A program made the translations under genes and the position numbers. From contig NJBH01000021.1 of the NCBI GenBank assembly GCA_005223125.1, forward strand, positions 1 to 63,024: a stretch of 63,024 nt of DNA. The letters run 5' to 3'. This stretch comes from Promethearchaeota archaeon Loki_b32. GTDB lineage: Archaea; Asgardarchaeota; Lokiarchaeia; Sigyniarchaeales; SOKP01. Below, in pieces: positions 1-23,841 of the stretch. Positions within the stretch are counted from its first letter, which is position 1, and each line of letters starts with the position of its first letter. Below the pieces are notes generated by a model. That model saw only the letters and a list, made by a program, of their open reading frames with translations, had not been told where the DNA came from and did no database searches.

Positions 1-969
1 ACCTAATTCTTCTGCTTTATTTTGTAGAAAAATCTTGTCTAACTGTTTAACTTTCTCTTCAAGTTCTATTTCTGTGTTAGCTTCTACTGTGTAAAACATT
101 GTACCCCTTTTTCTCTTTAAGTTTTCCCATAAAGGAAAAATTCCTTTTTCTGTGCCTACCCTTACTAATAAATCCATAAAATACATCGAATCGTAAACAT
201 CAATCCCTTTAAGCCTAAATTCAGTAAAAATTTTTGCTGATATTTCTTCAGATTTTCGAGGCATAAGAAATGTTTTATAATTCGCAAATGGAGGTTTTGG
301 AAAAACTTGTAATGATACTTGGGTTTTCACTCCAAAAATTCCGTTATCACCGCAAAAAAGACTTGCGAAGTCAGGACCGTTTCCGAATCTATTAAACGGC
401 AATTTTGAATATTTATTTGCTTGCGAACCTGTTTCAATTATTTCCCCAGTAGGTAGAACGACCTCTAAAGAAACTAATTGATTCGTACATGACCCATATT
501 TAGCACATCCCCCACCTCCAACTGATTGATGAGAGATACCGCCTCCAACTGAAGCTGTCAGTCCGGATCCAGGACCTAAACATCCTGTATATAATCCGAA
601 ATTGCATAAATAATCGTTTAATTTACCCCACGATATGCCTGCTTCGACGGTAACAATAAGATTTTCTTGGTCTAGATTAAGTACGTTGTTCATTCCCTTT
701 AAGTCCAAGACAATTCCACTATCACCAATGGGTTTGCTGCCACCAAATTCACAGTCACCACCTCCACGGGATATAACAGCTATATTTTCATCGTTAGCAA
801 CTTTAAGAATTTCAGAAACTTCTCGAGCATCCGTTGGTCTTATAACGATATCTGGAACCCCTTGTAATACGGGATCTACAGTCCTCGAATAAGCGTGTCT
901 TATATATAGATTATCTGAAATGCAATTTTTTGATACAATCTTTTCAAGTTTTTGATATAATTCTGACAA
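1..969 (-). CDS. FAD-binding oxidoreductase (GlcD/D-lactate dehydrogenase-like), 3' end outside the window
   Basis: Not in the ORF track. Open minus frame from TTG at 969 reads MSELYQKLEKIVSKNCISDNLYIRHAYSRTVDPVLQGVPDIVIRP...GDNGIFGVKT, a close paralog of 2857..4371. Confidence 0.9.
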   Translation of the reverse strand, partial: MSELYQKLEKIVSKNCISDNLYIRHAYSRTVDPVLQGVPDIVIRPTDAREVSEILKVANDENIAVISRGGGDCEFGGSKPIGDSGIVLDLKGMNNVLNLDQENLIVTVEAGISWGKLNDYLCNFGLYTGCLGPGSGLTASVGGGISHQSVGGGGCAKYGSCTNQLVSLEVVLPTGEIIETGSQANKYSKLPFNRFGNGPDFASLFCGDNGIFGVKTQVSLQVFPKPPFANYKTFLMPRKSEEISAKIFTEFRLKGIDVYDSMYFMDLLVRVGTEKGIFPLWENLKRKRGTMFYTVEANTEIELEEKVKQLDKIFLQNKAEELG

Positions 970-2856: not shown

Positions 2857-4371
2857 TTATTTTTCACCCCAAAAGTTGAATTTTCCTCTACTTAAAATCA
2901 TTTTAGGATCTAATATTTTTTTAATTGATTTCATTAAATTATAATATTCTTCTGAATAAGCACCAATATCTACCATTAAACGCGACATAAAATCTCCCAT
3001 CATATACCATTGCACACCAGCCTCAGTAACTCTTTTTAATAATGATTCCCATAGCTTTTGATTTATATCATCTATAAATTTATGAACTTCTCCATTGTAA
3101 TAACTCCAGAAACTTGTAAATCCACATGTTATTTCCACATTATTGCCATCTATAAGCAAAACAGGACCACTTCCTGCTATAGAACGGATTTTGGTAATTT
3201 CAAATATTTTTCGTATATCCTCATTGTGTTCCATGTCCCATTGATCAATGTCATTTAATATAGCGGGATATTGATTTATGGGAGCAAAGCATTCTGCTGT
3301 TAATGGTTGCATTGATGGAAATATTCCCCAAAGATTATGATAAAATTGATAATTTCCCTCTGTATATTGCCATTTGCCAAGATTTCCATCAGAAATTTCA
3401 GGACCTAAAAACTCAGCTTTATTATTTAACATAATTTCATCTAATTGTTTGACTTTCTCATCTAATTCTGCTTCTGTGTTAGCTTCTATTGTGTAAAAAA
3501 TGACACCTCTCTTTTTCTTTAAATGTTGCCATAATGGCATGAAATTCTCTTCTATTCCATATCTTACAATAAGATCCATTATATACATCGTATCATAAAC
3601 ATCAATTCCTTTTTGTCTGATTTCAGTCATGATTTTAGCAGAGATTTCTCTTTCTTTACGTGGTAATTGGAATGTTTTATATTCTGCGAATTCTGGTTTT
3701 GGAAACACTTGTAGAGAAACTTTTGTCTTTACACCAAAGATACCATTATCCCCACAAAATAGACCTGCTAAATCAGGACCGTTACCAAATCTGTTGAATG
3801 GAAATTTTGAATATACGTTTGCTTGAGATCCTGTTTCAATGATCTCTCCAGTTGGTAAAACAACTTCTAATGAAACTAACTGATTAGTACAAACTCCATA
3901 TTTAGCACATCCACCGCCACCTACTGAATGATGAGAGATACCTCCACCTATAGACGCACTCATACCAGAACCGGGTCCCATGCAACCAGTATAAAGACCA
4001 TAATGGCAAAGATATTCATTTAATTTTCCCCAAGAAATTCCTGCTTCGACAGTTACTATAAGATTTTCCTCATCTAAATTCAGAATATTGTTCATTCTTT
4101 TCAAATATAATACAATTCCATTATCTCCAATTGGTTTACTTCCTCCAAACTCACAAATACCAGCTCCACGTGGAATAACAGCAATATTTTCTTCATTAGC
4201 AACTTTTAGAATTTCTGAGATTTCTTCTGCATCCTTTGGTCTTATTACAATATCTGGAACACCTTGTAAAACAAGATCTACATTTCGAGAATAAGCGTGA
4301 CGAACATAAATATCATTAGAAATATATTTATCAGTAACAATCTTCTCTAATTTATTATATAAATCTGACAT
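2857..4371 (-). CDS. FAD-binding oxidoreductase (GlcD-like)
   Basis: PDIVIRP, RGAG, VEAG, GDNGIFGV and C-terminal LDPKMILSRGK motifs. Confidence 0.9.
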   Translation of the reverse strand: MSDLYNKLEKIVTDKYISNDIYVRHAYSRNVDLVLQGVPDIVIRPKDAEEISEILKVANEENIAVIPRGAGICEFGGSKPIGDNGIVLYLKRMNNILNLDEENLIVTVEAGISWGKLNEYLCHYGLYTGCMGPGSGMSASIGGGISHHSVGGGGCAKYGVCTNQLVSLEVVLPTGEIIETGSQANVYSKFPFNRFGNGPDLAGLFCGDNGIFGVKTKVSLQVFPKPEFAEYKTFQLPRKEREISAKIMTEIRQKGIDVYDTMYIMDLIVRYGIEENFMPLWQHLKKKRGVIFYTIEANTEAELDEKVKQLDEIMLNNKAEFLGPEISDGNLGKWQYTEGNYQFYHNLWGIFPSMQPLTAECFAPINQYPAILNDIDQWDMEHNEDIRKIFEITKIRSIAGSGPVLLIDGNNVEITCGFTSFWSYYNGEVHKFIDDINQKLWESLLKRVTEAGVQWYMMGDFMSRLMVDIGAYSEEYYNLMKSIKKILDPKMILSRGKFNFWGEK

Positions 4372-20108: not shown

Positions 20109-20648
20109 ATGAGCATTATTAAAAAAACAAATAAGATTCAAGTAATATGCCCTATCTGTAAGACAAGAGACCTCGTTGGCATATCGCGATCAAGCTTAAA
20201 TAGAAACTCTCAATTAACCACGATTTCAATCCAAAAAGGACTTATCTGCCCTCATCACTTTCAGTTTTTCATGGACAATCAGTTTCAAATTAGAGGATAT
20301 CAGAAAGTTGATTTGGAATTAAACCAAGAAAACTCTAAAATTTTAACGAATGGTGTAAAAGCTTTTAAACAAAATGAGAATCAAAGTAAGAATCTTTTTG
20401 AAAAACTAATAATCGATGATGATATTGTTAAATACCAACCATTAAATCGGAATAATATTAAGGAAAGGACTAATTCAACACCAGAAAGGATATCAAAAAG
20501 GAAAAAAATGACTCTAAAGGAAATTTATGAAGAATTCTGGGAATTCGTTGATGATGAAAATGAATTTTTTCATGAATTTATAATTAAAGATAATAGACGT
20601 CAAAAATCTTCAATAAATTCTAACAGAAATGAATATATAACTGTCTAA
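20109..20648 (+). CDS. Hypothetical protein with N-terminal Zn-binding motif
   Basis: CPIC...CPHHF. Confidence 0.7.
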   Translation: MSIIKKTNKIQVICPICKTRDLVGISRSSLNRNSQLTTISIQKGLICPHHFQFFMDNQFQIRGYQKVDLELNQENSKILTNGVKAFKQNENQSKNLFEKLIIDDDIVKYQPLNRNNIKERTNSTPERISKRKKMTLKEIYEEFWEFVDDENEFFHEFIIKDNRRQKSSINSNRNEYITV

Positions 20649-20879
20649 TATTAGATTAAAAAACTCAATATATAAGTTATTATTACTATATTGATGTTTA
20701 CACCACTCTTAAAAAATAATTTCGACTTTTAGAAATAAAACATAATTTCTATAAGAAAAAATCTTAGTTTATATGCAAAAGATATAAGAAAATTTAAAAT
20801 TCAGTACTTAATTTTCCAAAATAATAATTTCAATTATAAAAAATCAAAAATATAGAGATTAATTAATAGGTTGAAAAAT

Positions 20880-22396
20880 ATGAGTTATAAATTGCCAGAT
20901 AACAAGGACCTTGATGCTATGGTAGGCATTGTGGGAAAAGAGTACGCTACAAATAACAAAGCGATTACTGCGTCTTACTTGGCGAAATCAGTAATGGGTT
21001 TAGAAATCAATTATCCAAAATCGGATAATGACTAAAGAGCCAAATCCCTGATATCGTCATTCGACCTAAATACGTTGAAGAGATTCGCAAAATCTTAATC
21101 TACTGTTCCGCGGAGAAGATTGCAGTAAGTCCCGTCTCTGGTGGATTGTCTGGTGGATTTTCATGCCCAACAATCAAACCTGGCGGAGTTCTCCTTGATT
21201 TAGGAAGAATGAAAAGAATCATTGAAATCGATGAAGAAAATCGATTCGCAATTGTAGAACCTGGAGTAACAATAGGAGAACTCTGGGCATATATGCATAA
21301 AAATCATCCTGATTGGGCACCACCAATACCAGATGGAGCTCCACCAGCCTCTACAGTTATGGGTGATGCTATTGATAGAGGATTTTCATTATACACTTCA
21401 AGTGTGGGGCCACAAGGAGACAATTTTATGTGTGCTGAAGTTGTGTTTCCAAATGGCGATGTTTTAAGGACTGGTTCTTGGGCATTACCAACTGCGAAAC
21501 CATTCTACAAATATGGACTTGGTCCTGATATATGGTCTTTTTTGATGGGCAGTCAAGGGACTATGGGAGTAATCACAAAAGTGGTGGTAAAGATTTATCC
21601 ACATCCCGAATTTAAAACAGTAGTTGTATGGGGTATGTCAAATCCTTATGACATGCAGAATTTAACATTGGAAATCCAAAAGCAAGAATTTGGGATTGCA
21701 CATAATACTGTTATGGTGCAAGGTGGGAATTACCCTTTAGTAATGACCCGATGGCCTAAAGATAAAGTTCCACATGATTATGAATTCTATGAGGAAATAG
21801 GTATTTCGAAATGGTGGATGAATTTTGAAATATGGTGTCAAACCGCTGAGGAACTTGATTATGTGGTCAATAGAATTGATAAGATGGCAAAGGATTATAA
21901 GAAGAATAGAGCTAAAGACCCCGATTCAATAAAATCTCAGGAACTCCATCCAAAACAAATCGCAAGTAGATTAAAAAAGCCAAATAAAATTGCAATACCT
22001 TATGGTTTCTGGGACGCTGGTTTCTTATTTATTACTTGGTATACTCCATGGCCAGAATGTGCCCATTTCTGTGAAATATATTGTAACGCAATGGAAAAAT
22101 ATGGTTTTCCACCCACGATGTGGGTTGCTTCAATTGAGCGTGCTAGACAAGCAATTTGTATGCCTATCATTTGCTTTGATAGCACAAAGACAGAAGAACT
22201 CGAAAGAGTACAAGATTTGAATAGAGAGACTACTGAATATGGTCTGAAACAAGGATGGTTGAATTATCGACCAGATCCATACATTCACATCCAAGCTTAT
22301 TACCAAGCGGGAATGTACTGGAAATACTTGCGCATGTTTAAAAAACTGGTTGATCCAAATGGAATTTTACATCCTGGGAGGCTTGCTCTTCCATAA
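20880..22396 (+). CDS. FAD-binding oxidoreductase (GlcD-like), 494 aa, spliced: join(20880..21005,21038..22396)
   Basis: Exon 1 MSYKLPDNKDLDAMVGIVGKEYATNNKAITASYLAKSVMGLE joins in frame to SQIPDIVIRPKYVEEIRKIL after removal of 32 nt; GSQGTMGVIT and DPNGILHPG motifs. Confidence 0.88.
21006..21037 (+). other. 32-nt BHB intron in an mRNA
   Basis: GGU-[UUAG]-AA^A-UC(A)AUUAUCC-loop-GGAUAAUGA-[CUAA]-AG^A-GCC: 4-bp helix, two 3-nt bulges, paired flanks; removal fixes both frameshift and stop. Confidence 0.85.
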
Positions 22397-22416: not shown

Positions 22417-23841
22417 ATGGCTAAAACAGGAATGGAAAGATTAGAAGAGTTAAAAAAAGATATATATCGTTGTATTCATTGTAAAGCTTGTAAATTTGCT
22501 TATTCTGGTGAACCAAGTAGAGAGGGAATTGGTGAATGGAAAGGTAAAACGGATAGAACCTTTTTATATGAAGGAATGGTGGATGCTTGTCCAGCAGGTA
22601 TCGAATATGGATGGGAAGCTTTCTGGAATGCAGGTAAAATGTGGATTGCCCGATCAATTTTAAGTGGGGACTTAGAATTTAGTGATGAAGTTAGGGATGT
22701 CATTCTACCATGCATTACGTGTGGTCAATGTACAGCTCAATGTGATAATAAAATTCGTACTGTTGATATTATTGAATCTTTAAGAGCAGCATGTATAGAA
22801 TCTGGAGTGCCAATGATAGAAAAACATGAATTAGTAGACAAACTAGTGAAAGAGCGAAATAACCCATACGGTGGTGCTGCTGCTGATAGATTTAAATGGG
22901 CTAAAGATGCCGGCCTGGAGAAGTTTATCAATAATAAAGATGCGAAAATTGCATATTATGTAGGATGTACAGCAAGTTACCGTCAAATAGAGGTTGCTGT
23001 TTCGACTGCTAAGTTATTCGAGCTATTTGGTATGAATTTTACGATAGTTGAAGATGAGGTATGTTGTGGAAGTCCATTTTTCAGGATAGGAGCAGTTGAT
23101 ACCGCACAGGGATTAATGAGGAAAAATCTTGAAGCTTTCAAAGATATAGACATGGTATATTTCAGCTGTGCTGGGTGTTATAGAACGCTTACCATTGATT
23201 ACCCCAAATGGATGGCTGAAGACGAAGAACTTCCTTTTAAAACACAACATGCATTTGAACTAGTAGCAAGGTTAGTCCAACAAGAGAAAATCAAATTCAA
23301 ACTAAATAAGGAATTAAAAGGAAAGGTGGTTACCTATCATGATCCCTGTCATACTGGTAGACATTTTGCAGTTGATATGGAACAAGATATAATCGCGAAA
23401 TCTAAGAATCTTTTGATGGACAGTCGAAAAATTAAAAGAGCAATTGATGAATGGTATGAGGTCCCACGTATTATTCTTAGAAAACTTGAAGAAGACGTAG
23501 GGATAGTATTCAAAGAGATGTATCGAATAAAAATTGATAGCATGTGTTGCGGGGCTGGTGGAGGTGTAAGAGCAGGATATCCTGAATTTTCTCTCAGAAC
23601 CGCAAGTCTTCGATGTGATGAAGCGAATGCAGTAGGTGCGGATATTCTAACAACCGAATGCCCATTTTGCTGGAGGAATTTATCCGATGCAAATGATATG
23701 TACAATCACGGTATGAAAGTTTTAGGAATTCTTCAGATGATCACAGAATATAATCTTTTGGAGATTTTAGAAAAGCCTAACGAGAAAGATTTCTTAACAC
23801 CATCTATTAGAGAAAATATGGAAGAGAAACCTAATAAATGA
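22417..23841 (+). CDS. Fe-S oxidoreductase (GlcF/HdrD-like)
   Basis: CIHCKAC...CP and CITCGQC...C ferredoxin motifs, two CCG domains (VCCGSP, MCCGAGGG), YHDPCH; GGAGG SD upstream. Confidence 0.9.
   Translation: MAKTGMERLEELKKDIYRCIHCKACKFAYSGEPSREGIGEWKGKTDRTFLYEGMVDACPAGIEYGWEAFWNAGKMWIARSILSGDLEFSDEVRDVILPCITCGQCTAQCDNKIRTVDIIESLRAACIESGVPMIEKHELVDKLVKERNNPYGGAAADRFKWAKDAGLEKFINNKDAKIAYYVGCTASYRQIEVAVSTAKLFELFGMNFTIVEDEVCCGSPFFRIGAVDTAQGLMRKNLEAFKDIDMVYFSCAGCYRTLTIDYPKWMAEDEELPFKTQHAFELVARLVQQEKIKFKLNKELKGKVVTYHDPCHTGRHFAVDMEQDIIAKSKNLLMDSRKIKRAIDEWYEVPRIILRKLEEDVGIVFKEMYRIKIDSMCCGAGGGVRAGYPEFSLRTASLRCDEANAVGADILTTECPFCWRNLSDANDMYNHGMKVLGILQMITEYNLLEILEKPNEKDFLTPSIRENMEEKPNK

Follow-up and report, generated by a model that had tools for sequence, protein, structure and literature searches.

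A probable bulge-helix-bulge intron in the coding sequence of a GlcD-like FAD oxidoreductase of the Asgard archaeon Loki_b32

The cbf5 pre-mRNA of Desulfurococcales and Sulfolobales contains a bulge-helix-bulge (BHB) intron, the splicing of which has been shown experimentally (Watanabe 2002; Yokobori 2009, PMC2738675), and in the literature that we searched, BHB introns in archaeal coding sequences are reported for crenarchaeal cbf5 only (PMC2738675). In Haloferax volcanii, the 5' UTR of HVO_1309 contains a BHB intron of 46 nt, which a 2020 study verified through circRNA-seq and cleavage in vitro, naming cbf5 as the only other mRNA case (Schwarz 2020, PMC7714728). In Asgard archaea, tRNA genes carry non-canonical BHB introns that have been gained repeatedly and whose route of arrival is not known; the report describing them does not mention introns in mRNAs or coding sequences (bioRxiv 10.64898/2026.10.13.758758).

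Here we describe a 32-nt insert (positions 21006-21037) in the coding sequence of a GlcD-like FAD oxidoreductase of Loki_b32 that is very probably a BHB intron of the hBHBh' type, spliced by the tRNA-splicing endonuclease EndA and the ligase RtcB. Like the cbf5 intron, it is short, lies within a coding sequence, restores the reading frame when removed, presumably through EndA cleavage and joining by the tRNA ligase, and is patchily distributed among relatives with both gain and loss; its host likewise seems to have a heteromeric EndA, of the kind called broad-specificity in PMC5829648. Unlike in cbf5, the host gene encodes a metabolic oxidoreductase (PF01565), the lineage is Loki-type Asgard and not Crenarchaeota, the intron appears to move between species together with short exon tracts, and its splicing is predicted from sequence. 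The two introns are alike in mechanism but belong to separate intron families. The HVO_1309 intron is also an EndA substrate inside an mRNA, as is predicted here, but it is located in an untranslated leader and interrupts no reading frame. With the tRNA introns of Asgard archaea, the Loki_b32 insert shares lineage, motif and similar sizes, although those interrupt tRNAs and this one a coding sequence. Among eukaryotes, the splicing of HAC1 and XBP1 by IRE1 and RtcB offers another likeness, being the spliceosome-independent removal of a short, frame-changing mRNA intron with RtcB-type ligation; in contrast to EndA, IRE1 recognises stem-loops rather than BHB motifs, and HAC1/XBP1 splicing is stress-regulated. 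The FAD locus adds clear evidence that such an intron is spread laterally, and lost, together with short tracts of exon, as well as a helix formed by the two exons that clamps the motif.

The interrupted gene and its annotation

The Loki_b32 genome (4.13 Mb in 71 contigs, 30% G+C, 95% complete) includes contig NJBH01000021.1, of which positions 1-63,024 were analysed and are referred to below as the window. The interrupted gene opens at ATG 20880 on the forward strand. The 42 codons that follow from this ATG finish with ...GGT TTA GAA at 21005, and frame 1 is terminated by TAA at 21033-21035, while the frame encoding SQIPDIVIRPK..., with the conserved PDIVIRP motif, is a different one that is open from 21032 only; start, stop and displaced motif were found where the first-pass annotation had placed them. 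Exon 1 (20880-21005, + strand; MSYKLPDNKDL...SVMGLE) is collinear with residues 1-42 of uninterrupted orthologs, and exon 2 (21038-22396, + strand) consists of 452 codons and the stop. From its residue 4 onward, exon 2 encodes the PCMH-type FAD_binding_4 domain (Pfam PF01565, E = 1.1e-22, profile positions 1-139), whereas the NCBIfam models give only a distant GlcD-like match, far under the cut-offs. Because the domain begins at that residue, a protein initiated at any canonical codon inside exon 2 would miss the 36 N-terminal residues of the domain.

Excision of 21006-21037 joins GAA to AGC (...GLE|SQIPD...) and yields a protein of 494 aa, for which the predicted spliced junction is GGTTTAGAA|AGCCAAATC and the predicted peptide SVMGLESQIPDIVIRPK. 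The alignment of this product with both paralogs encoded in the window crosses the junction and is gap-free there, which agrees with the collinearity claimed earlier for the 494-aa protein; both paralogs are uninterrupted at the equivalent site. These GlcD-like FAD-binding proteins are encoded at 2857-4371 (-) and 1-969 (-) and show 32-34% identity to the spliced protein over its residues 17-234.

A purine-rich motif, AGGTTGA (20868-20874, + strand), is located 6-12 nt 5' of the ATG and, in an alignment of 19 orthologous 5' regions, is kept by nearly every ortholog, intron-bearing or not; it probably represents the ribosome-binding site for exon 1. Inspection of the sequence and of the ortholog alignment revealed neither a comparable purine-rich motif nor a canonical start on the 5' side of exon 2. 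The public annotation (P0128) gives a 450-aa protein at 21044-22396, with the non-canonical ATC at 21044 read as Met and 44 residues missing. The earlier statement that gene callers reduce this gene to 416 aa thus holds for the open reading frame from the first canonical start of the SQIPDIVIRPK frame (TTG 21146) but not for the public call. Intron-bearing genes are systematically mis-called. The genes of several relatives are likewise annotated from a non-canonical start or as 'partial'.

Only 21 nt past the stop of the FAD gene begins a gene for an Fe-S protein with the CCG domain (22417-23841, + strand; HdrD/TfrB/GlcF-like, Pfam PF02754 and PF13183, with an NCBIfam TfrB-like match at 1.7e-55 that is under the cut-off). 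This partner is probably co-transcribed with the FAD gene. Upstream, an open reading frame at 20109-20648 (+) encodes 179 aa rich in lysine and asparagine, with CxxC...CPHH motifs.

Structure of the insert

All parts of the motif lie on the + strand, and those listed by the first-pass annotation (both outer strands, the central helix, both bulges and the 7-bp portion of the inner stem) could be re-read in the sequence without change. The outer helix is formed by GGU (20997-20999) and GCC (21039-21041), with pair probabilities of 0.84-0.85; it has only 3 bp, one of which is a G-U pair. The central 4-bp helix pairs UUAG (21000-21003), which is invariant in 17 sequences, with CUAA (21032-21035). 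The 5' bulge AAA (21004-21006) is the same in all alleles, while the 3' bulge AGA (21036-21038) is replaced by AUA in several; the predicted cuts, past the second base of each bulge, fall at 21005/21006 and 21037/21038. The inner stem (21007-21016/21023-21031) consists of UC/GA, one bulged A (21009) and AUUAUCC/GGAUAAU, that is, 2 + 7 bp, and is closed by a loop of 6 nt (21017-21022). Our own strict scanner detects the motif at 21005/21037, with a 3-nt bulge on each strand and exactly 4 bp between the two, as in an EndA substrate, and helices flank both bulges. On either strand of the motif the 4-bp helix precedes the bulge, the arrangement also seen in the canonical tRNA intron at position 37/38.

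Beneath the BHB, exon 1 and exon 2 can pair with each other to form a clamp helix of 11 bp, the 5' strand of which is UGGCGA-A-AUCAG (20980-20991) and the 3' strand CUGAU-A-UCGUCA (21048-21059). Folding predicts the same helix for most of the nine further intron alleles, with a partial rearrangement in G042, and 97.9% of its cells are paired. The minimum-free-energy fold of 106 nt has z = -3.83, and none of 200 shuffles was as stable. This fold contains a competing pairing in which the two 3-nt bulges are not drawn, the conformer with BHB plus clamp being 1.8 kcal/mol above it; in the protein-free ensemble the outer and inner helices have a pair probability of about 0.85 and the central 4-bp helix one of only 0.09-0.18.

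Across 13 distinct alleles, 98.3% of the pair cells are standard pairs and six cells are unpaired. The changes comprise five one-sided substitutions that keep pairing through wobble: GCC to GUC in the outer helix of one allele, where a G-U pair is retained, U-A to U-G, C-G to U-G and A-U to G-U in the inner stem, and an alternation of U-G and U-A at the base of the clamp. Compensatory double changes are absent among the 13 alleles, and a shuffle control is uninformative for alleles of one origin. Because of that single origin, the evidence for the structure is one of conservation, mostly invariance, and not of covariation.

The insert contains no open reading frame, and with it no homing endonuclease of the LAGLIDADG or any other type. 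A blastn-short search of its own genome found no further copies, so it is not a dispersed repeat.

We also estimated how readily such a motif arises by chance. To pass the strict scanner, a site must combine a central helix of four Watson-Crick pairs with two bulges of 3 nt, no fewer than three outer and two inner pairs, and a length of 14-80. A single strand of the window yields 425 matches and the genome 45,865, a frequency of about 8e-5 to 1e-4 per site-length combination in this AT-rich (30% G+C) genome. By itself the BHB motif is therefore cheap in DNA of such composition; a motif placed exactly on the boundaries defined by orthologs is not. Four indel offsets preserve collinearity, so that a chance fit of a BHB is expected at about 4e-4, and the 9-bp inner stem makes this expectation still lower. 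A genome scan for strict BHBs that join two open frames gave 528 matches versus 448 at random sites with the same lengths, and 36 versus 30 when at least 100 codons were required on each side. Its matches are mostly junctions of adjacent genes; the scan recovers the 21006-21037 intron but cannot count others.

Orthologs, exon constraint and other readings of the insert

In whole-genome searches, 38 of 41 relatives had an ortholog, as did 43 of 54 genomes from the genus. In ten members of the genus, Loki_b32 among them, the open frame encodes only about 454 aa and the 32-nt insert is found at the same place, whereas some 25 other members and every sister-family ortholog found have an uninterrupted gene of about 500 aa. 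In the nucleotide alignment the presence/absence difference is exactly 32 nt, and the uninterrupted genes read ...ATG GGN YTN GAR TCN/AGY CAR ATH CC... (GLESQIP). Removing the 32 nt converts all ten intron-bearing genes into intact frames of 494-496 aa free of internal stops, and the cuts predicted for EndA produce the same GLESQIP, through GAA|AGC, as in the approximately 25 uninterrupted orthologs. The alignment of intron-less orthologs, which the first-pass annotation had named as a check of its proposal, thus bore it out across the genus and the sister families. The same intron is also present in seven metagenome contigs, and two of these show new variants.

Selection appears to act on the exons in the same way whether or not the insert is present. 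In intron alleles, pN/pS is 0.084 for exon 1, 0.10 for codons 43-78 and 0.12 for the rest of the gene; the corresponding values for uninterrupted alleles (0.070, 0.088 and 0.12) are indistinguishable from these. Synonymous divergence among the intron alleles is substantial (pS of about 0.45-0.64). When the insert is read in frame, seven of its eight variable sites would alter the residue, revealing no coding constraint. Given the equal pN/pS, the retention of the 5' motif in both classes of genes and the lack of coding constraint in the insert, exon 1 is most readily understood as being translated within the protein and the insert as not being translated, which argues against a pseudogene, a truncated start and a read-through insertion alike. 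An EndA-type BHB intron in this mRNA, as originally proposed, is supported by the ortholog indel, the ten intact products and the strong purifying selection on exon 1, with splicing itself predicted from these sequence comparisons.

A gene that is simply split or truncated would accommodate part of these data. The insert would then be tolerated in the unspliced message, and the protein would start at ATC 21044 without its first 44 residues, in keeping with the 450-aa NCBI annotation, or would be made as two polypeptides of 54 and 450 aa, in which case constraint on exon 1 could persist provided that the N-terminal peptide, made separately, still joined the remainder of the enzyme. A search of the metagenome contig collection gave no match to the spliced junction, a negative that is compatible with this alternative but uninformative, as the collection may hold no matching RNA. 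However, exon 2 is preceded by neither a canonical start nor a conserved motif, and the 12-aa tail that the short peptide would carry is the unconstrained stretch in which seven of eight changes alter the residue. A split gene also leaves unexplained why the boundaries of the insert coincide with a strict BHB, a coincidence expected at about 4e-4 by chance, and why the same kind of insert is present in a single-copy ribosomal protein gene.

This second case is the sole uL11 (rpl11) gene of Loki_b32 (G000 C57:12362-12566; L048:1501-1705), in which the L11_N domain is split between profile positions 26 and 27, with the two parts in different frames. The insert comprises 28 nt (approximately C57:12440-12467) with a strict BHB (GCAU/AUGC, bulges AAA and AUA). 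Since uL11 is essential and encoded once, the presence of the same kind of insert suggests that the organism splices such introns from mRNA. A full-length uL11 of 164 aa with 98% identity is found among database proteins (P0137). Taken with the points above, the uL11 gene makes a split or truncated FAD gene improbable.

Lower still is the probability that the 32-nt insertion has inactivated this copy, its paralogs making the loss tolerable. The genome does contain several paralogs, so that the loss of one copy might be borne, and every intron allele has a broken frame. Yet ten species and seven environmental contigs keep both exons with no extra stop or indel at a synonymous divergence of about 0.45, the pN/pS of 0.08-0.12 is that of the uninterrupted orthologs, and in G042 the insert appears to have moved into an otherwise intact allele. 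We regard a pseudogene as very unlikely.

Translational recoding, either as bypass of the 32 nt of the kind known from T4 gene 60 or as a frameshift near 21032-21035, could draw on the stable hairpin in the gap. For a bypass, however, the codons do not match, since take-off would be at GAA while AAG precedes AGC at the landing site, and the codon past the take-off site is ATC instead of a stop. A frameshift would be confined to the 4-nt window between TGA 21029-21031 and TAA 21033-21035, which lacks a slippery sequence, and would add about 12 unconserved residues beside the FAD domain. Recoding by either route therefore has a slight probability, a little below that of a pseudogene. A sequencing or assembly artefact is refuted for practical purposes by the recurrence of the same insert, with its own substitutions, in ten independent genomes and seven metagenome contigs.

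Splicing enzymes and mobility of the intron

As would be required for excision of a BHB intron, the genome encodes an endonuclease and a ligase, namely two proteins with the EndA domain (PF01974, over the cut-off) and one RtcB (PF01139). The EndA paralog of 202 aa (G000 C18:184174-184782; L037:1165-1773) most resembles the catalytic subunit of the heterotetrameric enzyme from Aeropyrum pernix, with Tyr, His and Lys retained at their positions. The second paralog, of 205 aa (G000 C2:78221-78838, - strand; L038:1423-2040), aligns with the EndA of Methanocaldococcus (M.) jannaschii, but its catalytic His is replaced. As one paralog is alpha-like and the other is devoid of the catalytic His, the two likely form an (alpha-beta)2 heterotetramer, one of two EndA types reported to cut non-canonical introns with broad specificity (PMC5829648). 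Aragorn detected only 11 uninterrupted tRNA genes in this 4.13-Mb, 95%-complete genome, and additional calls in its intron mode look unreliable; most tRNA genes of Loki_b32 are presumably interrupted. The count of 11 fits the intron-rich Asgard tRNAs described previously (bioRxiv 10.64898/2026.10.13.758758).

These components suggest the following course of expression. Transcription would begin 5' of ATG 20880, and in the transcript the 11-bp exonic clamp, together with the 3-bp outer helix, would present the BHB motif. The tRNA-splicing endonuclease, most likely the (alpha-beta)2 enzyme, would cut past the second base of each 3-nt bulge in vivo, after which RtcB would ligate GAA|AGC and probably circularise the intron. 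The ligated mRNA would encode the 494-aa enzyme, while unspliced RNA would give rise to the 54-aa peptide only, a canonical start codon being absent ahead of the FAD domain.

On a tree of the part of the gene lying over 110 nt 3' of the junction, the intron has a patchy distribution that demands at least four changes on well-supported branches. The intron-bearing G042 is placed, at 99% support, within the intron-less alleles of G012 and G063, to which it is approximately 95% identical along the gene, but in columns 24-153 of the alignment (the junction being at 126) it has 11 consecutive informative sites of the intron haplotype, a run not obtained in any of 200,000 permutations. The converse is seen in the intron-less G021 and G046, which have 96% overall identity to their intron-bearing sisters but only 78-82% in columns 91-150, where they carry the intron-less haplotype with the TCN serine codon. 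The identity windows were picked after viewing the alignment; the run-length permutation test is independent of them. For the mosaicism of G003, G021 and G046, strict informative-site rules left too few sites for a Fisher test, and window identities were used instead.

The mosaic G042 and the converse mosaics of G021 and G046 point to gain and loss of the intron via short-patch homologous recombination. The co-conversion of some 60-130 nt of flanking exon with either event indicates recombination between alleles, and judging from these tracts the losses are not precise deletions. Selection on structure alone does not explain the tract, because it reaches beyond the clamp helix. The best explanation is a single origin of the intron within the Loki-type genus, followed by its gain and loss between species; as opposed to homing-endonuclease introns, its mobility would consist in the recombination of flanking exon tracts.

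A broader reading, to which we give about an even chance, is that the FAD-gene intron exemplifies a process still under way, in which tRNA-type introns are spreading into protein genes of Loki-type Asgard archaea. Such introns would need no enzyme of their own, would travel by short-patch recombination with 60-130 nt of exon and would be kept because a clamp formed by the exons offers a strict BHB to an EndA of broad specificity. In that event, these relatives of eukaryotes would routinely have to stop ribosomes from completing unspliced mRNAs, and there would be a prokaryotic precedent for the separation of splicing from translation. Where transcription and translation are coupled, an intron in an mRNA poses the problem of how unspliced messages escape translation, which bears on the origins of introns and of the nucleus. 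The locus would add an Asgard case in an ordinary metabolic gene and suggests that introns of the tRNA type are able to enter mRNAs and to spread through recombination with no homing enzyme. Its alleles, differing by exactly 32 nt within one genus, constitute a clean natural experiment, and the region, at about 90 nt, offers a compact substrate on which Asgard EndA and RtcB can be assayed. For annotation, it illustrates how gene callers mis-annotate such genes, the public record here having lost its N-terminal residues to the ATC start.

Recombination within the FAD gene appears to be frequent across the genus. Outside the intron tract, in columns 1-40 and 160-230 (L001, L006, L024), there are haplotype blocks common to different species, for example to Loki_b32 (G000) with G003 and G046.
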